From Kiritimatiellia bacterium (GTDB lineage Bacteria > Verrucomicrobiota > Kiritimatiellia > RFP12 > UBA1067): a stretch of 64,000 nt of DNA. Position 1 is the stretch's first letter. Every line of letters begins with the position of its first letter. The stretch covers positions 1,027-65,026 of the forward strand of contig JAZOQY010000036.1 in assembly GCA_045656285.1 (NCBI GenBank). Direction: 5' to 3'. The notes beneath the pieces are model-generated. The model had not been told where the DNA came from. It saw nothing but the letters and a program-made list of their open reading frames with translations, and did not search any database. This document shows positions 1 through 38,684 of the stretch, in pieces. The translations under genes were made by a program, and so were the position numbers.

Positions 1-3000
1 GGTTATGCCGATGCATTGACTAACTCTCTTCCGATTAGGTTGCAGTGGGTCGGCTCTAAGGGTACGAGCACGGTTAAGCTTTATCGTACGCGCGATTTAG
101 AGAAGAGCGCGTCGGCTGAGCCTCTTTATACGGCTCAGACTGAGGGTAACGCTATTACGTACTTCGATCCTGAAGTCGGTCGAAATTATACTTGGACTGT
201 TACCGACTCTACCGGTGCGACTGCGACGGGTCACTTTTATACAATGCAGCGCACTCCTCGCATTATTAATCACGACCAGAATCCTTATTCTCACGGCGGT
301 GAGGCGAGTGTCGGGCGCGATATCGGCGGTTGGCTTACTTCTGACGGTACTAAGCGCGTTCAGCAAGGCTTACTTTACCGTTCTGCTCAGTTGGAATTTT
401 GCAGTTCGCGAGATAATGAAGAAATATATTCTCCCCTTACGCATCTTCAGGATAATTTAAAGGTCCGTTTGGATGTCGATCTTCGTCAGGGTGTGGATCA
501 TTTGGTTAAAAATGGATTTGTGGCTACGAATGGTTGGGTCGGCGCATGGGACGGCTGGGGTTGCGAATGGAATGATCGCGGCTATTTGCTTATTGATGAA
601 TCCAGTATTGGACCGCTCGTAAGGCGTTATTGCGTTGACTATTATGCTCCCGGTCAGTTCCCGTCTTATAATGCGCTATTCAGCCAGGATAAGTATAAAG
701 CTTCTTTCTGGATGGGATTTTACGAACTTTATAAGTCAATTAAGAAAGGTGAGCCTGCCCTCTTCCATTGTTCCCATGGTAAGGATCGTACTGGTGCGCT
801 CGCGTATATTATCTTAGGCTCTCTCGGTGTTTCTGAAACTGATTGCCGCCGTGACTTCGGCTTTACCTGGTATTCTGACGCCAAGAGCGACGTGGCTATG
901 AATAAACCGGGCGATAGCGATGTAATGGGCTACCTCGGTCTTAACAGTATTAAATCTAAATTGGATGCTTACTCCGGTTCTAATTTTCAGGAGGATTGCG
1001 TAGCGTATCTTAAGGATTGCTGCGCTAAGGCTGTAGCCAGCGGGAAGTATAACGGTTCCAGCGATTCGACCGCCGTTATCGCCGACTTCCAGTCTATAAT
1101 GCTTGAAGATATCGAGACTAAGTCTGTAGCTGCTAAGGTTGCTAAGCCTACTGGCAATTCGTTCAGTTATACTGGCGGCGAACTCGTAGGTATTCCTGAT
1201 GATGAGCGCTACACTATTACGGGAGTTTCTAAGGCGACTGACATTGGCTCTTATACGGCTACACTCGCTTTAAAGTCGGGATATACTTGGGCTGACGGCA
1301 CTACCGCTAATGCGCAGATTTCGTGGTCGATTACTGATGTTGTCGCCAGCGCGGGAATTACTAAGAATGCGATTTCTGACGCGGGTTATTCGGTAACCGG
1401 TCTTGGTAAGGATGGCGATGAGGTTGCAGTAGTTATTACTAACTATTTTAATTCTTTTACATGGAAGGCTCCTAAGGATCTTAAGTACGTTAAATATCTC
1501 GTCGTCGGCGGCGGTGGCGGCGGTGGCGGTCGCGCGGCATACGCTATGAGCGAATATGAAGGCGGTGCCGGTGGTGGCGGCGGCGGTGTTGTCGCAGGTT
1601 CAATTTTTAGCCTTAAAGCCGGCGATAAAGTTACTATCAGCGTCGGCGCCGGCGGTGATGGTGGTAGTAAGTCCACGTCTTATTCGACAGGTACTACCGG
1701 CAAGGGCGCAGGTGCAGCCGGCTCTAACTCGTCCTTTAAGGTTAATGATGTTGATTTTGTAACTGCGTTCGGCGGCGGTAATGACGCGGGTCACGGTGTA
1801 GTCGCTCCTCAGGGCGGATCTAACGCCGGTAACCGCGGTAATGTTACAACTGCCCAATCTTACACTGCAGCTGGTTCAATCGGCTCGAGCGCTACTTCGC
1901 TTCTCTCGTACACGATGTACGGTAATAAGGGTGGCGCAGGTCTCGCTGGAGTATATTGCGTTGCTGCTGGCGGCGGTGGTGCTACTCAAGCAGGCAGCAG
2001 CGCTCTTAAGTTAAGCGACGGTGTTTATGCTGCCGGTAATGGCGGCTTAGGTCTTCTTTCTGATATTACCGGTACGCGCACGGTTTATGGCTCAGGCGGC
2101 GGCGCTGGCGCGGCATCTAAGACTGAAGTCGCTTATGCCGGTAAGGGTGGTGACGGTGCCGGTGACGGCGCGATCGAGGGTTGCGGCACGAACGCGCTCG
2201 CCAACCAGGGCGGCGGCGGCGGCGGTGGCGCTCTCAGCGACGACAGCGATAAGGATGCCAGCGGCGGTAGCGGTGGCTCCGGTATCGTCGTACTTCGTTA
2301 TTCAGTCAAGGCTCAGCCTGAGGCTGAAACTCCTGTTGTAGTTTCTGAGAATAAACTTATTATCACTTACGGTGACTCTGTAACGAGAGGCTCTAAGGCT
2401 AATGAAGTTACGATGGATGATCGTAAGACTTACTTCGGCGGTCGCCTGAAGGGTGTTGCGAATGTCCCCGAGAGCTATCCTTACTGGCTCTCCGGATTCC
2501 TCTCCGATAATTATAATGTCATTAACCAGTCTCGCGGCAGTACCCTCGCGAGCCACGTTTCGGCTTGGTTCGGCGTTCAGGAAGTTTTGGTTAATACGGC
2601 TATTACGCTCCCTAAGTCCGGTAGCGTAACTCTTAACAAGAAGCTCGTATTTAACAATTGCACCTACGGTAATTCGATGGATGCATTACCTGCTGATGCA
2701 GACCTTAAGGGCTTTATTACTCCTGTTTATCCGCTTTCTGAGAATTATACAGCCGGAACTACGAGCGATTCTATTGTCGGTACGTTAGGCGGCTATCGCG
2801 TAAGAATTCAGGGCGATGATGTTGCGAGCCTTAAGGTCACGGCGCTTGATACTCTCGCGGCGGATGTGACGATTCCTGCCGGTTCAGTATTTATTCCTGA
2901 GAGCGCGACTGTTGAAGAATATAAGAGCGCTATTAAGATCGTCTGTATGGGCGGTAACGACTGGATCGGGAATCGTAACGGCGATTACGGCGAGGATGAT

Positions 3001-6000
3001 CCTTATACGTATACTTATAAGAACCATATTCGTCCTCTGGCGATGAAGATTAAAGCAGAAGGCGGCAGATACCTCATCGTTTCTCCTCTCTTTAATCCTG
3101 ACGGCTCCAGCCCCAGCGGTGATGTCGAGTCCCCAGAGCCTACCGAGACCGAAAAGCTTTACGCGGCTGATTTCGGAGAGAATTATTTCAACTTGCGCCT
3201 CGCGTTCGTTCAGAATGCTGAGCGTATCGCCAAGGAGCTAGATATTAAGATTAATGGTGAATGGTATGATTTTGGCGGTTCGATTATCGCGAGTGACTCT
3301 GTTCACCTTACGTCCGCCGGTTATAAGATTAAGGCGGCTTTAATTCGCGATAAGCTCGTTTCGCTCGGGTATATTACAGAAGTTGTTAAACCTGTCTACA
3401 CGACAGAGTTCGCGTATGACGGATCCGTTAAGCAGTGCGTACCTTCGGGCTCTGGTTACGCGGTTTCGGGTGTAAACGAGGCTTCTGAAACTGGCGAATA
3501 TAAAGTTCTTATTACGCTCGAACCTGGTCGTGTTTGGAGCGACGGAACTACTGATCCTATTGATGTTACCTGGACTATCGCTCAGCTTTCGGCTGGTGGT
3601 GAATCTTTCGTTCTTAAGGTCGATTCGGCCGACGGTAAACTTGTGAGCAGCCTCGGCGAAGGTGAGAATGAATATGCGGCCATCTTTACTACGGCTAATA
3701 AAGAAATTACTTGGGAAGTTCCTACCGACCTCGTTAATGTTCAGTTCCTCGTCGTCGGTGGCGGCGGCGGTGGCGGCGCCATCAGTAGCACTCAAGGTGG
3801 TGCCGGCGGTGGTGGCGGCGGTGTCGTTACTGGTATCGTAAACTCGCTCTCAAGAGGTCAGAAGATTAAGCTTTTTGTCGGTAAGGGCGGTGCTGGCGGT
3901 ACGACTACGACCGAAACGACTGTTTCTAGTCGCGTTGGCGTCGACCCTGACGGCGATGGCACTGAGTACGGCGTAGGTGGTGCATATTCTGGTCAAGACA
4001 GCTATTTCGCTGTAGACTCGGTTGAGTATGCTCGCGCTTATGGCGGTGCTGGTGACCCAGGCGCTGGTCTTAACGCTAAGCTCGGAGGCTCTAACTCGGG
4101 CGGTAGAACAACGACTGCTCAAGGTACACCGAAGAAGGGTGCGATCGGTGCGGCGGCAGCTGAGAACATTCTTAATTACAAGATTTTTGGTAACAAAGGC
4201 GGTGTCATACTTTCTACAACTCCTAAGGCTGCTGCTGGCGGTGGCGGCGCTATGACGGTTGGCGAGAATGCGAAAAAGACGAGCAGTTATCAAATTGGTG
4301 GCGGCGGCGGTGAGGGCGTTGTATCGACGATTACCGGCTCTGAAATTGTGTACGGCTCTGGTGGCGCTGGCGGCTTAAGGGGTAATATCGTTGAGGGTAA
4401 TATGGCGGGTTACGGCGGCTCGGGCGGTACGGGCGCCGGCGACGGATCCGGCGAATCGGCTAAGGCCAACCAAGGTGGTGGCGGCGGCGGCGGTACTACT
4501 TACCCGAAGAGCGCGACCGAGGGCTCTAATGCATTGGATTGGAAGCCTGATGCGATTATCGGTGGTAACGGCGGCAGCGGCATTGTAGTTCTTCGCTTCT
4601 CGATTCCCGGTGCTGACGAGAAGCTGAAAGTTGATGAGGTTACAGCTCTTATTAAGAACTATGTCTATGATGGTACAGAACATACTTGCGGACTTTCGTC
4701 TACAGATGTAAGATATACAATCAGCGGTGTAACTAAGGCAACCGAGGTCGGGACTTATACTGTTACTGTAACTGTTAAAGATGGTTGGATATGGAATGAT
4801 AATAATCCAGAGCCTTCAAGATCGTTTACTTGGAAGATTACTCAGGCTACGAACGAGTGGGTAACTGAGCCTTCTATTTCGAAGACGGCTTGGGATGCGG
4901 GCGCTACTGTAACGTATTCTATCGGTGAAGCTAAGAGCGGAACGCCGGTAGTAGTAACGATTAAGAAGGATAGTGCAGCGTTCTCAGGTACGCTCGCGAC
5001 AATGAAGGATTGGCAGCCTGGTTTCTATAGCATTACCTTCTCGGTAGCTGCGACTTCGGGCTATACCGGGCTAACTAAAACCTTAACTGTAAATGTAACT
5101 GATCCTAATGAAGAGATCGGCGAGGTAACGATTGATAAAAAGTGGGGTTATATTACTAAGCCTGCTGATAACGAATATATTCTCGTATTTACTAACCATA
5201 CTGCTACTGCAATGCAGTGGACAGCTCCCGCAGCGTTGCAGAATGTCCAGTTCCTCGTCGTCGGCGGCGGTGGCGGCGGCGGTGCTGACGGCCGTAGTAC
5301 TGTTGCTGGCGCCGGTGGTACCGGCGGTGCTGGCGGCGGCGGCGGCGGTGTCGTTACAGGCCTTGTTAATTTCGCTAAGGGTAGTGTAATTAGCGTTGCT
5401 GTTGGTAAGGGCGGCTCTGGCGGTAAAAAGGGTGTTATAACTCGAAATATAACATTCGTTGGTAATGATGAAAAAACACATACTGCTTACGGTGATTCTG
5501 GTAAGGCTGGCGACTCTTCATTCTCTGTCGGTGGTAATGTATACGTAAAAGCGTATGCGGGCGGCGGCGATTTAGGAGCAAAAAATAATACTGATTCTAT
5601 TTCGAATTGTCCTGAAGACGGTGGCTCAGGCTCTGGTGCGCGTTGGAAATACCGGTATAAAGACAACACTACCCAGAGTAAGGCTACTAAAGGTTATGTT
5701 CTTGATGATACCTCGCTTATTCCGTATTATAAAGCATTTGGTAATCCTGGCGGTCTTAATACATATAATTATGTTGCCGGCGGTGGTGGCGGCGCTACAG
5801 CGAAAGGTGGAGATACATATTATAAGACAGTAACAACAACCCATTGCGGAAAGCAGGAAGAACGTTATGCTGGTGATGGTGGCGAGGGCTTGAAGTCTTC
5901 GATTACTGGAACGGCTGTAGTTTATGGTTCTGGCGGCGGCGGCGGCAGCGGTGTATCTAAGGCTAGAACTGATAAGACATCAATGGATATTTATTTAGGT

Positions 6001-9000: not shown

Positions 9001-12000
9001 AATCCCGGTACCTATACGTTCCGCGCGACAGCGAGTGCCGCGGGTGTCGAGCCCTTAGTTTACGAAATCGACTTCTGGGTACTCCCCGCCGATTTCAGCG
9101 CCGCTAATACGATTGTCTGCTACGGCGACTCCATCACTTACGGTGACGGCGCGGCAGAAATTACGATTGATAATCGCAGTAACTACTTCGATGGTCGCTT
9201 AAGCGGTAAGACGATTAAGGCTAACTATCAGTATTATCTCGCCGGTATGATCGATACTAAGTACAATGTTATCGGTCAGGGTAAGTCTCAGCAGTGGAGC
9301 GATACGATTCTCGCTTGGCTGGGCGGCGTTGATACTGTTTCGCGCTTTGACGCTACGCTTCCTGCCGGCGGTGTTGGCGTTTGGACGCCTACCAATATTG
9401 TATTTACTGCTGATAATCCGTACGGTATTAATGGCGGCTTACAGTATGTACGCGACCTTCAGTATCCTCACTTGGTAAACGGTAAATACAATAACGATGG
9501 TCAGCTTAACTACTTCGCTGGTCTTCAGGCGCCTGAATATCCCGCGTTCGAAACATATCCTGAGCCGTCGGGCGTTTATGGTTCGATGACCGGTTGGTTC
9601 GGCGATAAGCGCGTTCGTATTCACGGCACTGAAGTTGGTCACCCTTACTTTAGCCGTAAGGATACTGGCGGCTATGGTACCGACCAGGTCTGGGAGCGCG
9701 TCAGCGTTGAAGGCTCCGAAACGGTAATTCCTGCAGGAACTCCGTTTAAGCCCGATACGGCGCTCGTTTATAATGACGCGATTTCGGTAATCTTCACTGG
9801 TACGAATGATGAAATGGGTCAACCTTATTGGCCGGCTAGCAACCCTAAGGATTATACAACCTACATTTCGATGATTTCCGGCACGGTAGCTAAGATTCCG
9901 TCTGGTCGTTATGTTGTTGTATCTACCGTTTCCGGTAGTCATCGTTCCGACGAAATCGAGTCAGCGTTTGCTAAGGAGTTTGGCGAGCATTATCTTAACC
10001 TCTATAAGTTGATGGAGTTTTACGGTCTTAAGACGGCGGTTAAGCTCGGCGCTATGACCCAGACTCAGGCTGACGCGACAACTTGGAATACTAAGACAAC
10101 CGGTCTCATGGGCGACTCCGTCCACCCGAACGAGAAGGGCTACCAGGTTATCGCATACTTCATTAAGCAAAAACTCATCGAGCTTAACTACATCGAGGGC
10201 AAGCGCGATACCGATATCAGCTTTAGCTATGTCGATAAACCTACGGTAGATGTAACGAGCTTTACTTATGATGGTACTGAGAAAGTAGTTATCGCTGAAG
10301 GTGAGAATTACACTCTAACTGGTACAGCTAAGGCGATTAACGCAGGCTCTTATACAGTGATTATTACTCCAAACGCTGGCTTCGGTTGGTCTGATGGTAC
10401 GATTGGTGCTGTTACGATTAATTGGACGATTGAGAAAACATCTGTTGAGCCAGGTCAGCCAGACGTTGGCGGTGGTGAAAATCCCGAAGTTGGTTCAAAT
10501 CTTACCATTGTAAGTCCGGCTGATTATTCGACTGTTTCGACGATGAGCGAAAAGTTAAAGTCGATTATCCAAAGTGCGGATATGCTTAAGACTTCTACAT
10601 TTACGACGGCCGGTACTGCTACTCGTAAGATGTACAGTAACGAGTATTGCACTAACTCGTTGCCTGTTAAGCTCGAGTGGACCGGTAATGCCGCGTCTTA
10701 CACGGTTAGCGTTTATCGTACGCGCGACCTTGAATCGGGCGATGCTAAGGCGCTTTATAGCGTAACTACGAGCGAAAACTCCATTCTTTATTGGGATCCT
10801 GAAGTTGGCCGTAATTATACGTGGACTGTAGATGACGGCTCTTCGGTAGCTGTTGGTCACTTCTATACAGAATCTGGTGTACCGCGCCTTATCTACGCCG
10901 ATAAGAACGGTCCCGATGGTCCTGGTATGGACTGCCTTAACGGCCGCGATCTTGGCGGTTGGGTTACGACCGACGGTAAGGTCGTTAAGCAGAGCATGAT
11001 TTACCGCTCGGCTGAACTTGAGACTTGCTCACCTACCAACTCCATCGGTATGCGCATTGAAATGCCTTATCTCGCTGATGTTCTTGGTATTAAACTTGAT
11101 ATAGATCTTCGTTCTACGAACGAGGTTCTAGACACATATTTGGATTATGCCCTTTATTATAGCGCATGGAAAGATCTTGAAGTATCCAACATTAGTCCTG
11201 ATATTCCCCGTTTTAGCGCTCACCTAAACGCTAAGACATCATTCCCTTCATACTCAAAAGCAATTGTTACCGCAACTGATGATGGCGAAGATGCAGAGAA
11301 AAAGCGTAAGGCTATCTGGAAGGTTTTTGAGCAGTTTACGATTGAAGAGAATTATCCTATTATTTTCCACTGCGCTCACGGTAAGGATCGTGCGGGTACG
11401 GTAGGCTATATTCTTTTAAGTGTATTAGGCGTTCCTGCCGATGATGCTAAGCGCGATTTCGGTCTTTCATGGCTTTATTACGTTAATGAGCCGATGATTG
11501 ACGGTTACGGCTATACGCCTATTGATGCGGCAGTATTGAATTTCCCATCATACGGTGGAGCTACATTAAAGGAGCAGTGCGAAAATTATCTCGTTGTCTG
11601 TGCGCGTGATGCCGGCGTTTCGGAATCTGTTGCACGTGAGAAGATCGCTAAGTTCAGATCTTTGATGCTTGAAGAGCCTGAAACAAAGATAAGCACTTCG
11701 TCCAATGAGACTGTTACATATACCTGGACCGGTAACGGCGGCGATAATAAGTGGAATAATCCCGCTAACTGGGTTTCGCCTGAAGATTCATACGGTTATC
11801 CTAACGCCGAGAATGCGGTAGTTTATTTCGATTCTGAAGTAATTGCTAATATCGATCTTGGAGGTAATATTTATAAAGCTAAACCCATTTTCGGTAATAT
11901 GTGCGATGTTGCTTTCGTAAATGGTACGCTTAATGTTATGGCCGAATCGTTTACTTTCGGAGCGGCAGATGCGACCATAACTTTGAATTCTAATGCTAAA

Positions 12001-15000
12001 ATCGTTGCTTCTGGCGCGTTGAAGATTCTTGGAACTTTAAATGTTGTCATTCCTGAAGGCGGGCGCGATTTGCCCATTAGCGCGGCGTCGCTCGCTGCTG
12101 ATACAGCAGCTAAGATTAATCTCGATTTAATCGATTTCTCAGCCGCGGGCGAGGTTACGATCGCGAGCTTTGGCGAGACTTTTGGTAGTGCTGCGGCTTT
12201 AGAATATACCTTTACGGTAGCCGGCAATACGGTAGCCGATCGCGGCGCAATTACAACGCCCGAATCTAAGGCGATAGTTTATTCCCAGGATAAGAAGACT
12301 GGCGTAATCTCGCTCCCCAATGCTGTTACGGGTCTTGTTTATTCTGGCTCTGAGCTTGTTGGTGTTCCCGCTGGCGAAGGTTATACGCTCGCTGGCGATT
12401 ATAAGGCTGTCAATGCCGGAACTTACACAGCTCAGGTCATCTTAAAAGATGGTTATACCTTCTCTAACCAAACTGATGGTACGGTAACCTGGACAATCGC
12501 TAAGGCGAATAACGAGTGGGTTCAGAATCCTGAGATTTCGCTTGATACCTGGAATATTGGTGAGGCGGGCGGAGTTCTTACGCTTGGCGTTACTAAGTTC
12601 GGTACGGTAACAGCGACCATTTCTAAGGATGGCGGCGAAGCTCAAGTCTTTAATGGTCAGCTCCCGACGACGAAGGGTAATTATGTAATTACTTACTTAG
12701 CTTCCAGCGAGGGAACAGATAATTATAATGCGATTTCTGTTGGCGAACTTACCAAGAGCATTGCATTTACGATAACCGCTAATCCGTCTGATTTAATGGC
12801 GTATGCGGGCTACGTTACCTACCCGGAGCCGATTTTCTATGTTAGTGGCGTCATGAAGCTTGGCGAAGGTACTACGACAGCTAGAATTAAGTATTCTATT
12901 AATTCTACGGTGTGTAATAATGTTAAAGAAGTCGTTGTTGATGAGAACGGATACTTTAGAGTTAATATTCCTTATCAGAATGCAGAGGATACTTTAACAT
13001 GGGAAGTTGAGGTAGTAAATTCTGTATCGTCTGATGTGCTTACTGTCGCTAAGTCGACCATCAAGCGCGCTGGCGATCCATCTCGTGTTACATATAAGTG
13101 GAGAGGTAAGGGTGCTAATAATAAATGGCGCAGCCTCGCTAACTGGGAAGGTTTCTCGGGAACGGTAGGTAATAATAATCCTTGCTGCTGGGGCTACCCT
13201 GGTGGTATTACTACACATATACATTTTGACCAATCTACAGCACCTGAAGGTATTGATCTCGAGGGGCAAACATGGAAATCTATCGATAATGGATTCTTCG
13301 TTTTTGAAGAAAATGTATTCGTTAAGATGAAAAACGGTACGCTCTTAATTGATGGAGGTCTTACAACATTTGAAAATGACACGGTCGGCTTAATCGGTGC
13401 GAATAATTCCACTCTTGTATTAAATAAAGTTGTTCTGAAATATGCGGTTGATAATAATGTTACTAAATATCTTATTCCGGCAGAAGGCTTTACGCTTGTA
13501 TATGAAGGTGATAATACAGTTGATTGGTGTTATTGCCCACAAAATGCTAATTCTAAGTTTGTTGTTCGCGATGGAACGCTCTCGGGCAATAGTTTTAGTA
13601 CGAAGGCGATTGCTGGCACTCACGTTGTTGAAATTTCTAATGGCGTTTGGAGTGTTTCGCAGAATGTTTCTAACGATAAGGGTATTGGCGCTAAGGTAAT
13701 CTTTCGCGACGGTACTGATCGTGAAGCTCAATTTAAGACATCAGGTTCTCTTAAGATGTACGGTACGTACGATATTAAGATTCCTGCTGACGGCAGAACT
13801 AATCCTGCTGTTGAGGCGAAGACTCTTACAAGTTGCGGTAGTTCTAAGATTGTTCTCGATGTAACTGATTATAAGAGCTCGGCCAAGGTTCCTCTCGTTA
13901 AGTTTACGAGCACAACTGCTCAAACAGCTCCAACATCGACTCTTGAAGCTTATGCCGATGGCGTAAATGTAACTTCGGAGCGCGGGGCCAAGTTAACATT
14001 TGAAGGTAATATTCTTTATTACTCTCAGAACGAAGTTAAAGATCCTGTAGTTCTTGAGAAAATTGAAAAGCCTGAATACGCTACGACATCATTTATTTAT
14101 GATGGAGCTGAGAAGGTTGTTGTTATAGAAGGTGAGAATTATACGATTATCGGTACGGCTAAGGCGACGAATGCCGGTTCTTATACAGCGACCATTACAC
14201 CTAACGAAGGCTTCTCTTGGGCTGACGGTACAACTGACGCGATTACCGTTAATTGGACAATCGCTAAGGCGACTAACGTTTGGACGACTGAACCTTCGAT
14301 TACTCTAACTGAGTGGACGGTAGGTGAAACGGCTGGCGTTTTGACGGCGGGTGTAGCTAAGTTCGGCGATGTTGCAGTTACGATTAACGGCGAAGAGTTT
14401 ACTCAAATGCCTACAGCCGCCGGCACATATACAATTACGTATACTGTAGCTGACACTGCGAATTATAGCGCTCTTGCTAAGACAATTACATTTAATATTA
14501 AAGCTCCTGTAGTTGAACCAGATCCCGATGAGCCTGGACCTGGTGAAGGTGAAGATGAGCCTGTAGAGCCTAAGCTCGAGATTGATCCTGCGGTAGGTTA
14601 TATCGTTACTGATCTTGGCGAACTTAAAGATCAGGTAGCGGTAGTCTTTACGAATGCTGATAATTACGCATGGACGATGCCTAAGAGCGCGAAGAATGTT
14701 CAATTCCTCGTTGTTGGCGGCGGTGGCGGTGGCGGCGGTGCCGTTAATGGTGGGTCGAACGACAAGCAGCAAGGAGGCGCCGGTGGTGGCGGCGGTGCTG
14801 TCGTAACAGGCTTTGTAAAATTACTCAATATCTCTGATATTCTTACTATTACAGTTGGCGAGGGCGGTGATAATGGTACTGGTGGATCTGGCACAACAAC
14901 AGGTACTGGTAGTGCTATTTCTGGAGGATTAAGTTCGTTCTCAGTTGGCGCAGTTTCTTACATCACTGCATATGGTGGTGGTGGCGGCGGCGGTTATAAT

Positions 15001-17130
15001 ACAGCTGCTGTTGGGGTCGGAGGTTCCAATTCGGGAGGAACTAAGAGTACTGCCGATACTGCGCTTGCATCAGTTACATATATTGGAGCTGATGCAGCAT
15101 CGAATATTTACGATGCACAGATATTTAGAAACAAAGGAGGCATGAGCTATACTTCAGACTCCGGTTACTCTTCCGGTGGCGGTGGCGGTGGCGCTACTAG
15201 CGTAGGTCTTGCTTCTACAGGTTCTAATAATGGCGGTATGGGTGGTGCAGGATTTACTACTGATATTACTGGCGAAAGCCTTGTATATGGTGCTGGTGGT
15301 GGCGGTGGTATTGGTAAAAACGGAGGAGCTTCATCAGATGCCGATACAAGTGCTGGCCATGGAATAGCTTTACAGGATGGTACATCTGCTAAAGCTAACC
15401 AAGGCGGTGGCGGCGGTGGCGGTAGCTACGGTAAGAATGGTGGTGAGGGCGGCTCTGGCATCGTCGTTTTGCGCTTTGCATATTCAGATAAAGATATTGC
15501 AGTCGATGCCGAAACTAATGTTAAGCCTAAGATTTCGTCCAAGGCGTATACGGGCTCTGAGTTAACGTCTGGTATCGTTGATACTTATGCTTATAGTGTA
15601 GAAGAGCTTACTCAGGATCGTGTTACTGTCGGTAAGAAGACAGTTCGCATAACACTTAATGATGGCTATGCTTGGAGCGACGGTGATGTTAACAAATCTA
15701 AGGATTTCGATTGGTATATTGCTGAAGTAGAGTCTATGGATAACGGCTATAAAGTCGTTGGTCTTGGTGAAAAGGGTAATGAAGTAGCTCTTGTGTTTAC
15801 GAATCATGCCGCGACAATCAACTGGACTGCTCCCGCTAACCTTACGAATGTTCAATTCCTCGTCGTTGGTGGCGGCGGTGGCGGCGGCGCTGATAATACA
15901 ACATACGATGAATTTTATCAAGCCGGCGGCGGCGGCGGCGGCGGCGGTGTCGTTACAGGTCTTATGAATCTTAATAAAGACGACGCTGTTTCAATTAAGA
16001 TTGGTGTAGGCGGCAGTGGTGGTGTTCGTGCCGATAAAGTAGCTCCGTATGGTGCTGTTAAGACGCAAGCTGAGAATTCTTCCTTTACTGTAGGCACAAC
16101 AGTTGTTACTGCTAATGCTGGTGGTGGCGATCCTGGCTCAACCTCCGCTAACTCTACGTCTAGCGGCGCGCAAACCGGTGGCGCAGGTGGTTCGAGCTCC
16201 GGTTCTCGTTCGGGAGCTACAGGTCGAGGCGATGCGACTCGTGGTAATGTAGAAGGTTCTGACGGCAAAGTCGTATCTTATACTGCTTTTGGTAATCAGG
16301 GTGGAGCTGGTGCTTCGAGTTATCGTGCTGGTGGTGGTGGTGGTGCTACTACCGAAGGTAAAGCCGCTTCTGACATCTTTGGTGGTGCCGGTGGTGAGGG
16401 TCTTGCTTGCGATATTACAGGCACGATGCTTGTCTATGGTTCTGGCGGCGGCGGCGGAGCCGTTAATAGCGGTGCTTTGGGCGCTGGCAATGGTGGTACT
16501 GGCGCCGGTAATGGTGGTTTTACGACAGCCGCGACTTCTGCACTCGCTAACCAGGGCGGTGGCGGCGGCGGTGGCGGCCGCACCGGCAACGGCGGCAACG
16601 GCGGCTCGGGTATTGTTGTGTTTAGGTATGTTTTGCAGCCTGATGTCAACGGCACTCCAATATCTCCTGAAAAAGTTTTTGATGAAGCGCGTGTGTCTAA
16701 GAAGATTACTTATCCTTCTGCTCCTTCGCTTACGGGCGAAGAAGGATCTCAGGTAATTACTTGGAGAAATGTAAGGTGTGCAGTTCCTAAGTATTATACT
16801 GCGACTTTGAACGATAATGTTATTTCTCTTAAGCTTAATACGTTTGCCAGACCTGTAATCTGCGAGACCGACGAAAACAAGGGTGATGCTATTGTAGTTT
16901 CAGATAAGACGGTTACAATCGGTATTACCAATACTAAGGTCGGCCTATTCTATAGCGTAGAGGCGCATGATCAACCGGCATGTGCGGCAAACCCCATCTC
17001 TGTCACCGACCCGATTCCAGCAGATGGAGAAACAGCCGTATTGACGATTGATAAGCCGGAAGTCGAGGGAAAAGTGCTGGATTCGGCGTTTTTCAAGGTT
17101 GTTGTAACCGATGAAAATCAGCAAAAGTGA
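1..17130 (+). CDS. Giant modular surface/secreted protein, 5' end outside the window (7 glycine-rich domains, 2 PtpB/Y_phosphatase3-like domains, 2 SGNH/GDSL domains, Ig/MBG-like spacers, beta-helix-like segments)
   Basis: Frame 1 is open from base 1 (GYADALTNSLP), so the TTG at 16 is probably not the start. Motifs: HCSHGKDRTG (766-795) and HCAHGKDRAG (11368-11397); GDSVT...GGND...DSVH and GDSIT...GTND...DSVH; seven (Y/F)LVVGGGGGGG...ANQGGGGGGG...GGSGIVV(L/F)R units; many YDG...G.Y......GY.W.DG.T......WTI spacers. Confidence 0.93.
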   Translation, partial: GYADALTNSLPIRLQWVGSKGTSTVKLYRTRDLEKSASAEPLYTAQTEGNAITYFDPEVGRNYTWTVTDSTGATATGHFYTMQRTPRIINHDQNPYSHGGEASVGRDIGGWLTSDGTKRVQQGLLYRSAQLEFCSSRDNEEIYSPLTHLQDNLKVRLDVDLRQGVDHLVKNGFVATNGWVGAWDGWGCEWNDRGYLLIDESSIGPLVRRYCVDYYAPGQFPSYNALFSQDKYKASFWMGFYELYKSIKKGEPALFHCSHGKDRTGALAYIILGSLGVSETDCRRDFGFTWYSDAKSDVAMNKPGDSDVMGYLGLNSIKSKLDAYSGSNFQEDCVAYLKDCCAKAVASGKYNGSSDSTAVIADFQSIMLEDIETKSVAAKVAKPTGNSFSYTGGELVGIPDDERYTITGVSKATDIGSYTATLALKSGYTWADGTTANAQISWSITDVVASAGITKNAISDAGYSVTGLGKDGDEVAVVITNYFNSFTWKAPKDLKYVKYLVVGGGGGGGGRAAYAMSEYEGGAGGGGGGVVAGSIFSLKAGDKVTISVGAGGDGGSKSTSYSTGTTGKGAGAAGSNSSFKVNDVDFVTAFGGGNDAGHGVVAPQGGSNAGNRGNVTTAQSYTAAGSIGSSATSLLSYTMYGNKGGAGLAGVYCVAAGGGGATQAGSSALKLSDGVYAAGNGGLGLLSDITGTRTVYGSGGGAGAASKTEVAYAGKGGDGAGDGAIEGCGTNALANQGGGGGGGALSDDSDKDASGGSGGSGIVVLRYSVKAQPEAETPVVVSENKLIITYGDSVTRGSKANEVTMDDRKTYFGGRLKGVANVPESYPYWLSGFLSDNYNVINQSRGSTLASHVSAWFGVQEVLVNTAITLPKSGSVTLNKKLVFNNCTYGNSMDALPADADLKGFITPVYPLSENYTAGTTSDSIVGTLGGYRVRIQGDDVASLKVTALDTLAADVTIPAGSVFIPESATVEEYKSAIKIVCMGGNDWIGNRNGDYGEDDPYTYTYKNHIRPLAMKIKAEGGRYLIVSPLFNPDGSSPSGDVESPEPTETEKLYAADFGENYFNLRLAFVQNAERIAKELDIKINGEWYDFGGSIIASDSVHLTSAGYKIKAALIRDKLVSLGYITEVVKPVYTTEFAYDGSVKQCVPSGSGYAVSGVNEASETGEYKVLITLEPGRVWSDGTTDPIDVTWTIAQLSAGGESFVLKVDSADGKLVSSLGEGENEYAAIFTTANKEITWEVPTDLVNVQFLVVGGGGGGGAISSTQGGAGGGGGGVVTGIVNSLSRGQKIKLFVGKGGAGGTTTTETTVSSRVGVDPDGDGTEYGVGGAYSGQDSYFAVDSVEYARAYGGAGDPGAGLNAKLGGSNSGGRTTTAQGTPKKGAIGAAAAENILNYKIFGNKGGVILSTTPKAAAGGGGAMTVGENAKKTSSYQIGGGGGEGVVSTITGSEIVYGSGGAGGLRGNIVEGNMAGYGGSGGTGAGDGSGESAKANQGGGGGGGTTYPKSATEGSNALDWKPDAIIGGNGGSGIVVLRFSIPGADEKLKVDEVTALIKNYVYDGTEHTCGLSSTDVRYTISGVTKATEVGTYTVTVTVKDGWIWNDNNPEPSRSFTWKITQATNEWVTEPSISKTAWDAGATVTYSIGEAKSGTPVVVTIKKDSAAFSGTLATMKDWQPGFYSITFSVAATSGYTGLTKTLTVNVTDPNEEIGEVTIDKKWGYITKPADNEYILVFTNHTATAMQWTAPAALQNVQFLVVGGGGGGGADGRSTVAGAGGTGGAGGGGGGVVTGLVNFAKGSVISVAVGKGGSGGKKGVITRNITFVGNDEKTHTAYGDSGKAGDSSFSVGGNVYVKAYAGGGDLGAKNNTDSISNCPEDGGSGSGARWKYRYKDNTTQSKATKGYVLDDTSLIPYYKAFGNPGGLNTYNYVAGGGGGATAKGGDTYYKTVTTTHCGKQEERYAGDGGEGLKSSITGTAVVYGSGGGGGSGVSKARTDKTSMDIYLGKGPGGKGGTGAGDGNAAAEANGSSAKANQGGGGGGGGYMANGGSGGSGIVVFRFTVDTGQTEEPEEELIAVAKPVVSETSFTYDGSAKSVVASNAGYTLVGNAMATEAGNYTVTIKLNAGYVWSDNSTDDIVINWTIVAIEEPFEPGVVELAGTYGYVVPNVGGNANEYAVVFTNENAGAITWRVPADLENVEFLVVGGGGGGGGVTSANLGGAGGGGGGVITGKIFSVSQGATLTINVGKGGAGGNTAKATSAGESGSASSIANNGVVYVSAPGGGGDSGMDNESADRVGKQGGSNAGARTTSVASHTFSSFVTNCAYVVAKSYGKKGGYTYSTGAAASGGGGGATAAGGNSTSNAAGGKGGEGLTSSITGTSVVYGSGGGGGNTKVSGDAYVNGVGGTGAGDGGKHSDGLYNAKSGLANQGGGGGGGGGRNVDGGAQYRGKGGNGGSGIVVLRFSMPVVVETVKVAKPVATPSFTYDGAEKVALASGEGYELSGTTQAVDAGSYSATATLKSGYAWSDDTTEAITFNWTIAKASNSWNTKPDITKTSWYTDEDAATLTLGAAKFGEVVTSMTKDGEAVTFSETLPTEAGNYTITFAVADSNNYGALTETIAFTVIEASPVKVNGSYGYVVPGLGANGNEYAVVFTNAASTITWTVPKDLKNVQFLVVGGGGGGGAINNSSNTRTTGAGGGGGGIVTGVVATLEKDAAITINVGKGGTAGKCAVNQYGGYGASENGGNSSFVYADKLTVTAYGGGGDGGAQDTSSSVSKANAGKAGGSSGGSRPGCATKTAPLSTEDCVISQIDGLVVYSEVFGKAGGAGNTEPIYDFYWIAGGGGGATEVGGDGNAAGDWHGGKGGEGLASEITGELKVYGSGGGGGSSVNNDGCGGEAGTGAGAGNSLHDGPGYDALANQGGGGGGSGSTANGNGGNGGSGIVVLRFSLEEEGETPEVPPTPASDWSEIPSLSKKIFNAGTVITVFNGASENRTVTANYTATQIAALNPGTYTFRATASAAGVEPLVYEIDFWVLPADFSAANTIVCYGDSITYGDGAAEITIDNRSNYFDGRLSGKTIKANYQYYLAGMIDTKYNVIGQGKSQQWSDTILAWLGGVDTVSRFDATLPAGGVGVWTPTNIVFTADNPYGINGGLQYVRDLQYPHLVNGKYNNDGQLNYFAGLQAPEYPAFETYPEPSGVYGSMTGWFGDKRVRIHGTEVGHPYFSRKDTGGYGTDQVWERVSVEGSETVIPAGTPFKPDTALVYNDAISVIFTGTNDEMGQPYWPASNPKDYTTYISMISGTVAKIPSGRYVVVSTVSGSHRSDEIESAFAKEFGEHYLNLYKLMEFYGLKTAVKLGAMTQTQADATTWNTKTTGLMGDSVHPNEKGYQVIAYFIKQKLIELNYIEGKRDTDISFSYVDKPTVDVTSFTYDGTEKVVIAEGENYTLTGTAKAINAGSYTVIITPNAGFGWSDGTIGAVTINWTIEKTSVEPGQPDVGGGENPEVGSNLTIVSPADYSTVSTMSEKLKSIIQSADMLKTSTFTTAGTATRKMYSNEYCTNSLPVKLEWTGNAASYTVSVYRTRDLESGDAKALYSVTTSENSILYWDPEVGRNYTWTVDDGSSVAVGHFYTESGVPRLIYADKNGPDGPGMDCLNGRDLGGWVTTDGKVVKQSMIYRSAELETCSPTNSIGMRIEMPYLADVLGIKLDIDLRSTNEVLDTYLDYALYYSAWKDLEVSNISPDIPRFSAHLNAKTSFPSYSKAIVTATDDGEDAEKKRKAIWKVFEQFTIEENYPIIFHCAHGKDRAGTVGYILLSVLGVPADDAKRDFGLSWLYYVNEPMIDGYGYTPIDAAVLNFPSYGGATLKEQCENYLVVCARDAGVSESVAREKIAKFRSLMLEEPETKISTSSNETVTYTWTGNGGDNKWNNPANWVSPEDSYGYPNAENAVVYFDSEVIANIDLGGNIYKAKPIFGNMCDVAFVNGTLNVMAESFTFGAADATITLNSNAKIVASGALKILGTLNVVIPEGGRDLPISAASLAADTAAKINLDLIDFSAAGEVTIASFGETFGSAAALEYTFTVAGNTVADRGAITTPESKAIVYSQDKKTGVISLPNAVTGLVYSGSELVGVPAGEGYTLAGDYKAVNAGTYTAQVILKDGYTFSNQTDGTVTWTIAKANNEWVQNPEISLDTWNIGEAGGVLTLGVTKFGTVTATISKDGGEAQVFNGQLPTTKGNYVITYLASSEGTDNYNAISVGELTKSIAFTITANPSDLMAYAGYVTYPEPIFYVSGVMKLGEGTTTARIKYSINSTVCNNVKEVVVDENGYFRVNIPYQNAEDTLTWEVEVVNSVSSDVLTVAKSTIKRAGDPSRVTYKWRGKGANNKWRSLANWEGFSGTVGNNNPCCWGYPGGITTHIHFDQSTAPEGIDLEGQTWKSIDNGFFVFEENVFVKMKNGTLLIDGGLTTFENDTVGLIGANNSTLVLNKVVLKYAVDNNVTKYLIPAEGFTLVYEGDNTVDWCYCPQNANSKFVVRDGTLSGNSFSTKAIAGTHVVEISNGVWSVSQNVSNDKGIGAKVIFRDGTDREAQFKTSGSLKMYGTYDIKIPADGRTNPAVEAKTLTSCGSSKIVLDVTDYKSSAKVPLVKFTSTTAQTAPTSTLEAYADGVNVTSERGAKLTFEGNILYYSQNEVKDPVVLEKIEKPEYATTSFIYDGAEKVVVIEGENYTIIGTAKATNAGSYTATITPNEGFSWADGTTDAITVNWTIAKATNVWTTEPSITLTEWTVGETAGVLTAGVAKFGDVAVTINGEEFTQMPTAAGTYTITYTVADTANYSALAKTITFNIKAPVVEPDPDEPGPGEGEDEPVEPKLEIDPAVGYIVTDLGELKDQVAVVFTNADNYAWTMPKSAKNVQFLVVGGGGGGGGAVNGGSNDKQQGGAGGGGGAVVTGFVKLLNISDILTITVGEGGDNGTGGSGTTTGTGSAISGGLSSFSVGAVSYITAYGGGGGGGYNTAAVGVGGSNSGGTKSTADTALASVTYIGADAASNIYDAQIFRNKGGMSYTSDSGYSSGGGGGGATSVGLASTGSNNGGMGGAGFTTDITGESLVYGAGGGGGIGKNGGASSDADTSAGHGIALQDGTSAKANQGGGGGGGSYGKNGGEGGSGIVVLRFAYSDKDIAVDAETNVKPKISSKAYTGSELTSGIVDTYAYSVEELTQDRVTVGKKTVRITLNDGYAWSDGDVNKSKDFDWYIAEVESMDNGYKVVGLGEKGNEVALVFTNHAATINWTAPANLTNVQFLVVGGGGGGGADNTTYDEFYQAGGGGGGGGVVTGLMNLNKDDAVSIKIGVGGSGGVRADKVAPYGAVKTQAENSSFTVGTTVVTANAGGGDPGSTSANSTSSGAQTGGAGGSSSGSRSGATGRGDATRGNVEGSDGKVVSYTAFGNQGGAGASSYRAGGGGGATTEGKAASDIFGGAGGEGLACDITGTMLVYGSGGGGGAVNSGALGAGNGGTGAGNGGFTTAATSALANQGGGGGGGGRTGNGGNGGSGIVVFRYVLQPDVNGTPISPEKVFDEARVSKKITYPSAPSLTGEEGSQVITWRNVRCAVPKYYTATLNDNVISLKLNTFARPVICETDENKGDAIVVSDKTVTIGITNTKVGLFYSVEAHDQPACAANPISVTDPIPADGETAVLTIDKPEVEGKVLDSAFFKVVVTDENQQK

Positions 17131-17216: not shown

Positions 17217-17246
17217 ACACGCTCAAAATAATTGTCTTTTAAGAAT

Positions 17247-18032
17247 ATGAAAAAAATCGCATTGCTGTTTGTTTTATGTTTGAGTTCTCTTGCGGCGCAG
17301 GCTCAAGGCCCTTCAAAGCGCGGCAGGTTGTGCCTCACATTCGATGATTGCCATTGGAATGGTTGGGTCGCTGTCATGCCAATCTTTGAAAAGTATAACG
17401 CCAAAGCGAGTTTCTTTCCGCATAGCGCCTTAAGTGCGGGTGCGCTTAAAGCGTTGAAGAAACTCCACGACGCGGGGCATACTGTTGGTTTGCATACGGT
17501 TCATCACCGTAAAGCGACAGATTATGTCAAACAAAAAGGTTTTGATGCCTTTTGGGATGATGAATTGGCTCCTCAGATGAAGGCTTATGCGTCTGTCGGT
17601 ATTGTGCCGACGGCAATGGCGTATCCAAATAACGCCAGTACGCCCGACATTGACGCTCAGCTCGTTAAGCGCGGCTTCAAACGCCTTCGCGGTGGCTTAC
17701 CTAAGGCGAGACCTCATGATCCTAAAGGACTTAAGCGTGACACGCTCGTACCGTTCGAAAAGCTCGATGCGATGTATATGAGCGAAGCGGCCGTTGCCAC
17801 CAATCGTCTTATGCGCGGCGTCGGTATCGGTACTAATTACAACACCGACATCGACGATCTTCTCAAAGGAATCCGCAGGGCTGCCGCCAATAACGAGACG
17901 ATGGTCCTCTATTCGCACGATATTTCGAAAAAGCCCAGCGGCATCGGTATGAAGACCGAATGGCTCGAGGCGATTTTAAAGGCAGCGAGCGAAGAGGGTA
18001 TGGCTATCGTTGGATTTAATGATCTTCCGTAG
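17247..18032 (+). CDS. Exported polysaccharide deacetylase (CE4/NodB-like)
   Basis: Signal peptide MKKIALLFVLCLSSLAAQA; LTFDD, GLHTVHH, AYP and LYSH motifs. The ATG at 17247 is preferred over the TTG at 17232. Confidence 0.85.
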   Translation: MKKIALLFVLCLSSLAAQAQGPSKRGRLCLTFDDCHWNGWVAVMPIFEKYNAKASFFPHSALSAGALKALKKLHDAGHTVGLHTVHHRKATDYVKQKGFDAFWDDELAPQMKAYASVGIVPTAMAYPNNASTPDIDAQLVKRGFKRLRGGLPKARPHDPKGLKRDTLVPFEKLDAMYMSEAAVATNRLMRGVGIGTNYNTDIDDLLKGIRRAAANNETMVLYSHDISKKPSGIGMKTEWLEAILKAASEEGMAIVGFNDLP

Positions 18033-18053
18033 AAATCTTAAAAAGGTAAAATC

Positions 18054-18944: not shown

Positions 18945-18985
18945 TTGTCTCGTGCTGTTGTTTTTATTTTGAAAGGTTTATTAGC

Positions 18986-20587: not shown

Positions 20588-20597
20588 TAAGAAGTAA

Positions 20598-22037: not shown

Positions 22038-22043
22038 TATGAA

Positions 22044-23168: not shown

Positions 23169-23171
23169 CCA

Positions 23172-36262: not shown

Positions 36263-36283
36263 CAATTCCACAAGGCGTCCATC

Positions 36284-37984: not shown

Positions 37985-38000
37985 CAAGGACGGAAAATAT

Positions 38001-38678: not shown

Positions 38679-38684
38679 TGTAAA

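Follow-up and report, generated by a model that had tools for sequence, protein, structure and literature searches.

A giant, predicted secreted multi-enzyme protein of a Kiritimatiellia bacterium carries seven phage-type glycine-rich units

Glycine-rich bundles of the polyglycine-II type form a small and recently recognised class, known from a few phage tail proteins, from ALK and LTK and from an antifreeze protein. In gp38 of phage S16 and the T-even phages, variable distal loops on such a bundle set receptor specificity. The available portions of the paper on phage Pam3 (PMC9608196) describe gp24 as a TNF-like domain combined with a glycine-rich domain of 12 glycine-rich motifs, in which a conserved stem bears a hypervariable receptor-binding tip. 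The same source also links this fibre to ALK of C. elegans and portrays gp38 as a three-layer, 10-motif bundle that sits on a beta-helix, not on a TNF-like sandwich. In phage Bxb1, the gp33 "tail wing brush" domains and gp29 are glycine-rich polyproline-II-type bundles according to the accessible text of two papers (PMC13243192; PMC13243795).

Seven units of this general kind are encoded in the 64-kb stretch of DNA from a Kiritimatiellia bacterium that we analysed (the window). The preliminary description had regarded them as a tandem receptor-binding array; they are not a free-standing one: all seven lie in frame 1 of one ORF of at least 5709 aa, as modules of a single giant, predicted secreted multi-enzyme protein. 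Its features, and the genes that follow it, are arranged as follows.

1..17130, + strand: giant ORF, 5' end open at the window edge; 5709 codons plus stop
316..867, + strand: PTP-like phosphatase domain 1 (Pfam Y_phosphatase3, aa 106-289)
1381..2310, + strand: Gly_rich_2 unit 1 (aa 461-770)
2365..3339, + strand: SGNH/GDSL esterase-like domain 1 (aa ~789-1113)
3631..4608, + strand: Gly_rich_2 unit 2 (aa 1211-1536)
4609..5142, + strand: Ig-like spacer domains (He_PIG, E 5.5e-7)
5143..6171, + strand: Gly_rich_2 unit 3 (aa 1715-2057), with the longest loops among the units
6463..7377, + strand: Gly_rich_2 unit 4 (aa 2155-2459)
7882..8829, + strand: Gly_rich_2 unit 5 (aa 2628-2943)
9121..10155, + strand: SGNH/GDSL esterase-like domain 2 (aa ~3041-3385)
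10933..11478, + strand: PTP-like phosphatase domain 2 (Y_phosphatase3, aa 3645-3826)
11686..14070, + strand: region with two modules without a Pfam match (aa ~3896-4100 and ~4396-4690) and Ig-like spacers between them
14593..15486, + strand: Gly_rich_2 unit 6 (aa 4865-5162)
15742..16638, + strand: Gly_rich_2 unit 7 (aa 5248-5546)
16639..17130, + strand: C-terminal region, ending in ...SAFFKVVVTDENQQK
17232..24578, + strand: six tightly spaced genes with 4-nt overlaps or gaps of 3-21 nt

The orthologue P0002 aligned from its own residue 72, which indicates that about 71 residues are missing from the giant ORF here, and the complete protein would be about 5780 aa long. P0002 has a signal-peptide-like N-terminus, as do most relatives of the giant protein, and on the strength of this orthologue's signal peptide we predict that the giant protein is secreted. 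P0002 for its part is missing a segment that corresponds to aa ~3482-4671. Besides the Ig-like domains listed, the remaining spacers between units (6172-6462, 7378-7881 and 13201-14589) give weak matches of the MBG/Ig-like kind.

Comparison with Pfam identifies the giant protein as a multi-domain one with, by prediction, two PTP-like phosphatase and two SGNH esterase-like domains. The phosphatase-like domains score 74.4 and 96.5 bits against Y_phosphatase3 (cut-off 22.2), and each retains an intact C-X5-R motif, HCSHGKDRTG from aa 256 in the first and HCAHGKDRAG from aa 3790 in the second. SGNH domain 1 reaches 22.9 bits with Lipase_GDSL, slightly under the cut-off of 23.6, and SGNH domain 2 reaches 33.2 bits with Lipase_GDSL_2 (cut-off 32.9). 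Both contain GDS and DS[VI]H blocks, the GDS block of domain 1 starting at aa ~794 and its D-x-x-H block lying at aa ~1103.

A profile built from the units themselves recovers all seven, at E values of 1e-93 to 1e-109 each and within a few bases of where the preliminary description had put them. The fixed scaffold that it had claimed also holds, each of six counted motifs being present in six or seven units. [YF]LVVGGGGGGG, GGGGA, ITG....YG[SA]GG and GGSGIVV.R are found in 7/7; GGGGG[VIA]V.G is found in 6/7 (unit 4 has V-I, and the count is 7/7 if the second position may be V or I), as is ANQGGGGGGG (unit 5 has six G, and the count is 7/7 with six G). All six are absent from the other 3512 residues of the protein, and glycine content is 27.9% within the units versus 8.9% in the remainder. 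The units are ~300 aa long and share 44-53% pairwise identity (mean, 48%); 77 columns of their alignment are invariant, glycine accounting for 53 of these. Indels fall in 12 alignment stretches, where the lengths of individual loops range over, for example, 14-33, 5-22, 8-21 and 8-22 residues, so that the loops between the motifs do differ in length and sequence as had been reported.

All seven units are members of Pfam PF21722 (Gly_rich_2), and the family is thus already catalogued rather than new. The matches amount to 317.1 bits over five stretches in aa 1-3000 and 121 bits over two stretches in aa 3001-5709 (cut-off, 24.3 bits), far enough over the cut-off to exclude a chance resemblance among the units. 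The best stretches span profile positions 3-225 of 226; the model leaves out the N-terminal strands, which make up the first ~25-40 residues of each unit. At E<=0.01 the units matched no other Pfam family, NCBIfam contained no family matching them, and our literature search found no paper naming PF21722 or Gly_rich_2 and none pairing Kiritimatiellae with "glycine-rich". PF21722 comprises 5512 representative proteins at E<=1e-3, and tandem arrays of the domain are common in other proteins. A PTP-like domain occurs in 19/186 other fetched family proteins, and GDPD, GDSL-like, Laminin_G_3 or BspA-LRR partners are found among the 12 multi-copy relatives scanned.

Several comparisons connect these units with phage proteins. 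In PHROGs, phrog_2295 is matched by 7/7 units, phrog_863 ("tail fiber assembly") by 5/7 and each of three "minor tail protein" families by 2/7. In the ESM Atlas, PF21722 is present in 30/30 nearest clusters, the top three of which are 80-100% viral. A tblastn search of unit 2 against 50,697 GenBank phage records, run with the low-complexity filter on, returned nothing at E<=1e-3, a result that says little because the filter probably masks the glycine runs. The locus and its relatives show wide use of a phage-type domain by cellular bacteria, often in tandem arrays fused to esterases or phosphatases.

To examine the fold, we generated AlphaFold models of units 1 and 3 from a shallow alignment that contained only the seven paralogues. 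The unit 1 model has a pLDDT of 84.8 and a pTM of 0.88, with 264/310 residues at pLDDT >=70, and the unit 3 model has a pLDDT of 73.9 and a pTM of 0.81; by this check, the two units are folded, not disordered. Helices are absent from both models, in which strands alternate with high-confidence glycine runs of no regular structure, that is, non-strand, non-helix segments within blocks of pLDDT 90-95. Where pLDDT is low, the segments are those of the variable loops that carry indels, and the low values may reflect flexibility or disorder. Judged from this topology and from the matched structures, the glycine segments probably form a bundle of the polyglycine-II type, and the variable residues probably cluster on one of its faces. 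The modelled core is beta-strand, and the TNF-like sandwich is shown by only 7-23% of the solved matches (Pam3 gp24 and ALK).

The preliminary description had placed the units with phage gp38 and the ALK/LTK glycine-rich domain, and glycine-rich bundles of phage tail proteins and of ALK/LTK are indeed their closest solved matches. Foldseek searches of the PDB gave the same top match for both models, chains Qa/Qb of the Bxb1 tail tip (9D93; E ~1e-7, probability 1.0, target TM 0.56-0.57), followed by the Pam3 fibre (7YPX/7YFW; E 3e-5 to 8e-3) and then by the ALK/LTK glycine-rich domains (E 3e-4 to 3e-3). The phage matches have modest TM scores (0.40-0.45 by query and 0.46-0.57 by target), and those to ALK/LTK reach only 0.2-0.32, with rmsd values of 7-19 A. 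By contrast, gp38 (6F45) appears neither among the listed Foldseek matches of either model nor in the PDB sequence search, in which the best match to a unit profile had an E value of only 0.22. Against the predicted viral structures of BFVD, Foldseek found 271 matches at E<=1e-3, with query TM values up to 0.73.

Like Pam3 gp24 as described in the available portions of its paper, the units are predicted to combine a beta-strand core and projecting glycine-rich hairpins, conserved in the stem and variable at the tips, and by sequence reading each has ~12-13 glycine-rich segments, versus 12 motifs in gp24. The structural match (Foldseek E 3e-5 for unit 1 and 5e-4 for unit 3, probability 1.0) comes with a TM of only 0.36-0.49 and 16-21% sequence identity in the structural alignment. 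Moreover, the units have no N-terminal alpha-helical domain for trimerisation and baseplate docking, are flanked by Ig-like spacers, occur seven to a chain together with these spacers and with enzyme domains, and are encoded without an adjacent fibre chaperone or phage context in the 39 ORFs scanned. Bxb1 chain Q, the best solved match, has 229-230 residues versus ~300 in the units and is a virion component, whereas the giant protein is predicted to be a secreted cellular enzyme. A connection to gp38 exists only by way of the Pam3 paper (PMC9608196), as far as its available portions go. With ALK/LTK, the units may share the general TNF-like plus glycine-rich arrangement; the ligand-binding role is the receptor's. 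ALK and LTK are metazoan receptor kinases with one domain copy per chain, and the giant protein is bacterial and has no kinase domain. In overall architecture, it resembles multi-modular secreted enzymes and giant beads-on-a-string surface proteins, which are generally known to combine a signal peptide, Ig-like spacers, catalytic domains and repeated non-catalytic modules, yet the repeated module here is a phage-type glycine bundle instead of a classical carbohydrate-binding module or lectin.

The giant gene is chromosomal, in a relative of ruminant-gut Kiritimatiellae, and is not part of a prophage. Related loci lie in Kiritimatiellae/Kiritimatiellia MAGs in 31/33 cases, and synteny around the gene is conserved in at least three Kiritimatiellae MAGs. 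Among the 39 neighbouring ORFs scanned are glycan enzymes, Tad-pilus genes, FTHFS and RecJ, and none of the 39 has a phage-type or tail-fibre-assembly Pfam domain; a prophage location was rejected on this basis. The first of the six same-strand genes downstream begins 101 nt after the giant ORF. In order, these genes encode a polysaccharide deacetylase, a GDPD phosphodiesterase, a xylose-isomerase-like TIM barrel with a 3-keto-disaccharide hydrolase, an alkaline phosphatase, YibE/F and a GH20 hexosaminidase. By spacing, they may form an operon with the giant gene.

The preliminary description had also called the loops hypervariable, and comparison of orthologues upholds this in part. Between orthologues, scaffold columns are 96.6% identical and variable columns 75.9%; indel loops drop to 66.3%, compared with 92.9% for the protein outside the units, and the loops are the fastest-evolving part of the giant protein. 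However, dN/dS never exceeds 1: scaffold values of 0.015-0.044 compare with 0.12-0.36 for the loops and 0.08-0.20 for the remainder, all pooled Nei-Gojobori estimates with which a few selected sites are still compatible. Pervasive positive selection on the loops finds no support in the pooled loop values, and at such values relaxed constraint and selection for new specificities explain the fast loops equally well. Variation is instead found at the level of whole units, which form a mosaic between orthologues at 55-95% identity while their flanks are ~90% identical. Unit 4, for example, shares only 55% identity with unit 4 of P0002 between flanks at 91-93%, and which unit is replaced changes from one orthologue pair to the next. 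Divergent units show raised dS along with raised dN (dS values >1 being near saturation), and their dN/dS stays below 0.4. These features of the sequences point to recombination of whole cassettes and not to hypermutation.

We propose that the units are binding heads on a giant secreted enzyme, each head having its own loop-set specificity and the set being renewed by recombination that swaps units; we put the probability of this reading at about 0.5. In each unit, about a dozen glycine-rich segments would project from the beta-strand core as hairpins and pack into a bundle of the polyglycine-II type. A rigid stem would be made up of the conserved glycine runs together with the few strands that are conserved, and the hairpin tips and other loops between the runs, whose length and sequence vary from unit to unit, would give each head its own specificity. 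Strung between Ig-like spacers, the heads would hold the two Cys-X5-Arg phosphatase-like and two SGNH esterase-like domains against a polymer or cell surface that serves as substrate, a role like that of carbohydrate-binding module arrays in multi-modular enzymes that degrade glycans. We infer accordingly that the units bind, that their loops set what is bound and that the ligands are tied to the substrates of the esterase and phosphatase domains. Recombination that exchanges entire units among alleles or paralogues, rather than targeted hypermutation, would renew the diversity.

Other explanations bear on what drives the variation and on whose gene this is. Loops that evolve faster than anything else in the protein could owe this to a dedicated mutator such as a diversity-generating retroelement, an idea that we find scarcely credible here. 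The 39 other ORFs scanned within the 64-kb window contain no reverse-transcriptase domain, and the giant ORF has no near-identical template/variable repeat pair, its direct DNA repeats being 60-87% identical; a diversity-generating retroelement was rejected on these two grounds. In addition, point mutagenesis of coding positions would not make dS climb with dN, as it does in the divergent units. The matches to PHROGs tail families, the viral character of the nearest Atlas clusters and the rank of phage tail proteins as best structural matches would all suit a phage or prophage tail-fibre gene or a tailocin component. We nonetheless consider it very improbable that the region is other than cellular, given the scanned neighbours free of phage-type Pfam domains, the signal peptide on the orthologue, the phosphatase and esterase domains within the protein and the synteny across at least three Kiritimatiellae MAGs.

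The units could also be structural, either as rigid beads that stiffen or extend a surface fibre or as modules that self-associate through flat polyglycine-II faces into a matrix or surface layer, with loops left to drift. Loop dN/dS of 0.12-0.36 fits the relaxed constraint that this implies, as does low pLDDT in the loops. In the consulted parts of the respective papers, glycine-rich polyproline-II-type bundles are robust, well-packed scaffolds that tolerate varied flanks (10.1101/2023.11.25.568672), and a moderate-confidence prediction has a hexaglycine peptide that could dock on such a bundle (PMC13243192). Against a structural role, those solved homologues to which a role is assigned in the sources available, Pam3 gp24 and ALK/LTK, are receptor- or ligand-binding ends, spacers are already supplied by the Ig-like domains, and replacement of whole units amid conserved flanks is the pattern expected of surface specificity cassettes and is hard to account for in a purely structural bead; we therefore hold this role to be unlikely, while still giving it some weight. 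Peptidase_S74 is an intramolecular chaperone domain typical of trimeric phage fibres, and its presence at the end of 2/12 multi-copy relatives scanned (P0070 and P0083) raises another option, that the whole protein is a homotrimeric fibre whose TNF-like cores trimerise as in Pam3 gp24, so that it would bear seven trimeric knobs and not monomeric heads. The giant protein itself has no Peptidase_S74 domain, neither unit model contains a predicted helical segment, and monomers are the rule for PTP-like and SGNH enzyme domains and for Ig-like spacers. A three-copy complex prediction for unit 1 scored 0.00 against a mark of 0.42 and speaks neither for nor against a trimer. Pam3 gp24 is a trimer according to the available portions of its paper (PMC9608196), but we regard a trimeric giant protein as improbable.

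If the units are indeed binding heads, the seven natural variants and their allelic cassettes form a series from which loop-to-specificity rules on a glycine-bundle scaffold could be learned, and they would offer a route to the attachment targets and food sources of the poorly known gut Kiritimatiellae. One can go further and suppose, though we consider it quite doubtful, that a phage fibre-tip fold was taken up by a gut bacterium as a seven-headed targeting array, with heads swapped between strains or paralogues in the manner of phage host-range cassettes and latching onto surface polymers of other microbes or of the host, which the fused and adjacent enzymes would dismantle. Phosphodiester-linked, acylated glycopolymers would then be examples of targets, and the products of the adjoining deacetylase, GDPD, alkaline phosphatase and GH20 genes would join in breaking the polymer down.

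Other parts of the giant protein recur in its relatives as well. Modules related to the two Pfam-less modules at 11686..14070 are present in 8 and 11 other family proteins, and many relatives likewise end in an FFKV/FFRV-type strand and then an acidic tail.

The giant open reading frame runs through window positions 1-17130 on the forward strand as a single frame of 5709 codons, open at the 5' edge and with its stop at 17128-17130. A profile built from its glycine-rich units found exactly seven full-length matches in the window protein (E 1e-93 to 1e-109), which confirms the seven units of about 300 residues placed there by the preliminary description. The motifs it had listed as shared occur in six or all seven units and nowhere in the remaining 3512 residues, and the length-variable loops it had reported correspond to twelve indel-bearing variable stretches of the unit alignment (loop lengths of, for example, 14-33 or 5-22 residues). 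Pairwise identity among the units is 44-53%, and glycine fills 53 of the 77 invariant columns.

Features of the giant open reading frame (ORF) and the genes after it. Residues (aa) are numbered from the window start; the units were delimited with the profile built from them, the genes by ORF calls and a domain scan.
aa 461-770, +, unit 1
aa 1211-1536, +, unit 2
aa 1715-2057, +, unit 3, with the longest loops of the units
aa 2155-2459, +, unit 4
aa 2628-2943, +, unit 5
aa 4865-5162, +, unit 6
aa 5248-5546, +, unit 7
Giant ORF, +, two Y_phosphatase3 domains (74 and 96 bits; C-X5-R loops intact)
Giant ORF, +, two SGNH/GDSL-like regions (GDS and D-x-x-H blocks; scores at Pfam cut-offs)
Giant ORF, +, Ig-like spacers (He_PIG, MBG-like)
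Window 11686-12300 and 13186-14070, +, two modules with no Pfam family (Trp-rich starts TYTWTGNGGDNKWNNPANW and YKWRGKGANNKWRSLANW)
Window 17232-24578, +, six tightly spaced genes: CE4-type polysaccharide deacetylase, GDPD phosphodiesterase, xylose-isomerase-like plus 3-keto-disaccharide hydrolase protein, alkaline phosphatase, YibE/F, GH20 hexosaminidase

The closest relative, P0002, is a protein of 4528 aa that shares 86% identity with window residues 1-3481. Since this alignment starts at its residue 72 and a typical signal peptide lies at its N-terminus, about 71 residues are missing from the window, and the window protein is predicted from its orthologue's sequence to be exported. A block of about 1190 residues (window 10444-14013, aa ~3482-4671) is missing in P0002, which shows a domain-level insertion or deletion between orthologues; it holds the second PTP-like domain and the two modules without a Pfam family, relatives of which are found in 8 and 11 further proteins of the family. 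At the C-terminus (window 17065-17127 and P0002-P0070), many family proteins carry a strand of the FFKV/FFRV/IFKIV type followed by an acidic tail, and the terminal residues of another subset are ...RVIVR or ...FKVIVR. Such segments have no Pfam match; they may serve this lineage as signals for sorting or anchoring.

The units are members of Pfam PF21722 (Gly_rich_2), matched in 5 + 2 stretches at 317 and 121 bits (cut-off 24.3 bits) over profile positions 3-225 of 226. In PHROGs, phrog_2295 (no function assigned) was matched by all seven units, phrog_863 ("tail fiber assembly") by five, three "minor tail protein" families by two each and one "tail fiber protein" family by one. PF21722 was present in 30/30 nearest ESM Atlas clusters, the best three of which are 80-100% viral, with Uroviricota commonest. 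AlphaFold2 models built from the seven-unit alignment were confident for unit 1 (pLDDT 84.8, pTM 0.88; 264/310 residues at pLDDT >=70) and somewhat lower for unit 3 (pLDDT 73.9, pTM 0.81). Neither model contains a helix; the glycine runs form high-confidence segments that DSSP leaves unassigned, alternating with strands. Low-confidence segments (unit 1, residues 99-107 and blocks 51-60, 151-160 and 281-290; unit 3, residues 54-59, 101-120, 148-179 and 274-288) match the variable indel loops.

Foldseek ranked the PDB matches identically for both models: the Bxb1 tail tip (9d93 chains Qa/Qb; E ~1e-7, target TM 0.56-0.57), the Pam3 fibre (7ypx/7yfw; E 3e-5 to 8e-3, target TM 0.43-0.49) and numerous entries for the glycine-rich domain of ALK/LTK (E 3e-4 to 3e-2, TM 0.2-0.32), with all lower matches at E>0.4. 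ALK/LTK, with which the preliminary description had compared the units, are among these matches at low TM only; gp38, its other comparison, was absent from the matches listed in both PDB structure searches and from the sequence search. Among predicted viral structures, 271 matched at E<=1e-3, the highest query TM being 0.73; the majority are "glycine-rich domain-containing proteins" and come from cyanophages, uncultured tailed phages, a haloarchaeal phage and prasinoviruses. Pam3 gp24 is described as a helical docking domain, a TNF-like sandwich and a glycine-rich domain, and is likened there to S16 gp38 and C. elegans ALK (PMC9608196); polyproline-II-type glycine bundles are described for the Bxb1 gp33 "tail wing brush" domains and gp29 (PMC13243192; PMC13243795). 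Each variable loop is bordered on both sides by a glycine run, and these runs begin and finish at strands. This topology and the matched structures suggest a polyglycine-II geometry with variable residues clustered on one face.

When 1.84 billion representative proteins were searched with a profile, 5512 matched at E<=1e-3; a threshold of 1e-10 left 969 of them, and one of 1e-30 left 129. Among 187 family proteins with 351 full-length domains, 81/54/30/9/2/2/2 carry 1/2/3/4/5/6/7 copies, so tandem arrays are common in the family; by the looser count of matched stretches in the representative-protein search, one protein of 6381 aa reaches 14. Each species was represented by a single genome in a scan for related loci, whose search patterns were taken from the family's own motifs and hence favour close relatives; it found 33, the best with 87% DNA identity over window 7-5284. 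Six Kiritimatiellae/Kiritimatiellia metagenome-assembled genomes (MAGs), from sheep or yak gut where titled, hold 31; the others lie in a bacterial assembly and, weakly matched, in an Actinomycetota MAG. Thirteen are in a single yak-caecum Kiritimatiellae MAG, JAGBTH (L003, L006, L010, L015-L017, L020, L022, L024, L027-L029 and L031), which indicates a large lineage-specific expansion of these proteins.

In a tree of the 351 units (FastTree, midpoint root; detail is soft given the glycine-rich alignment), the window's seven fail to group as a single clade: the clade of their common ancestor covers 114 units from 76 proteins, and units 6 and 7 have their nearest neighbours in other proteins. 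With only 60-87% identity between the DNA repeats of different units, the duplications are old. Peptidase_S74 is a phage-fibre chaperone domain. Among 12 multi-copy relatives, it ends two; Laminin_G_3 occurs in three, Y_phosphatase3 in two (one also with a BspA-type LRR), GDPD with fn3 and other domains in one, a GDSL-like lipase in one, and Gly_rich_2 alone in four. PTP-like domains related to the window's occur in 19 of 186 other family proteins and its type of SGNH domain in three. Gly_rich_2 thus serves in phage-type fibres and also, repeatedly, beside esterases and phosphatases in secreted bacterial proteins.

Compared column by column, identity to P0002 is 96.6% in the scaffold, 75.9% in variable columns, 66.3% in indel loops and 92.9% outside the units. 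Pooled Nei-Gojobori dN/dS against five orthologous loci is 0.015-0.044, 0.09-0.18 and 0.12-0.36 for the first three classes and 0.08-0.20 for the rest of the protein. The loops are thus the fastest-evolving part of the protein, but pooled values such as these do not prove positive selection.

Divergence from P0002 is lumpy: segments between units are 91-95% identical, whereas units 1-5 are 86.5, 93, 76, 55 and 94% identical. Against the JAZOQU MAG, identity is 67% in unit 2 (dS 1.47; flanks 0.50-0.74), 78% in unit 3 (dS 1.08) and 95% in unit 4 (dS 0.35), the unit that is 55% identical to P0002. DNA identity in unit 2 falls to 0.53-0.62, against 0.80-0.93 in the flanks, yet this unit is 92-93% identical to P0002 and to L002, a sheep MAG locus against which units 1 and 2 show no comparable drop. 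Across window 3631-7377, comparison with P0002 and L001/L014/L002 gives a mosaic of whole units with flanks ~90% identical throughout. Because dS and dN rise together and the affected unit differs from pair to pair, whole units appear to be replaced, which points to recombination with old alleles or paralogues, not local hypermutation. A mutator-driven system is the least probable explanation of all: no reverse transcriptase was found among the 39 ORFs scanned in the window.

The best reading, with a probability of about 0.5, is that the protein is a secreted multi-enzyme built like beads on a string, in which the seven glycine-bundle domains would be binding heads with loop-set specificity. 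They would keep the phosphatase and esterase domains attached to a polymeric or cell-surface substrate, and cassette recombination would renew that specificity. The analysis shows the family, the fold, the catalytic motifs, the genomic context and the mosaicism, as well as export by way of the orthologue's signal peptide; we infer that the units bind, that they do so specifically, and what kind of ligand they recognise. Units with the same scaffold and loops could instead be structural or self-associating, which we consider unlikely. A trimeric fibre is more doubtful still; a three-copy complex prediction of unit 1 returned no answer and counts neither for nor against it. Despite the phage kinship of the fold, a prophage gene is very improbable: the 39 ORFs scanned include no phage gene.

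The finding is not of a new kind, since the domain family is catalogued, structures of its fold have been solved from phages and metazoans, and sequence databases contain many tandem arrays. Apparently new within the literature searched is the cellular use of the domain, as a seven-unit array in a giant secreted phosphatase/esterase of gut Kiritimatiellae that shows cassette-level mosaicism between strains. That search, outside subscription journals and supplements, found nothing naming "PF21722" or "Gly_rich_2" and nothing joining "Kiritimatiellae" with "glycine-rich".

As a speculation, the six downstream genes and the fused PTP-like and SGNH domains might together break down an acylated, phosphodiester-linked glycopolymer. 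The remaining window encodes glycoside hydrolases, Tad-pilus genes, FTHFS, RecJ and further housekeeping genes. Its Tad/Flp-pilus-like cluster (window 35435-43031, +) comprises RcpC/CpaB, an FHA-containing T2SSE ATPase and T2SSF; after it comes a protein of 1448 aa that carries a TMEM260-like O-mannosyltransferase domain.
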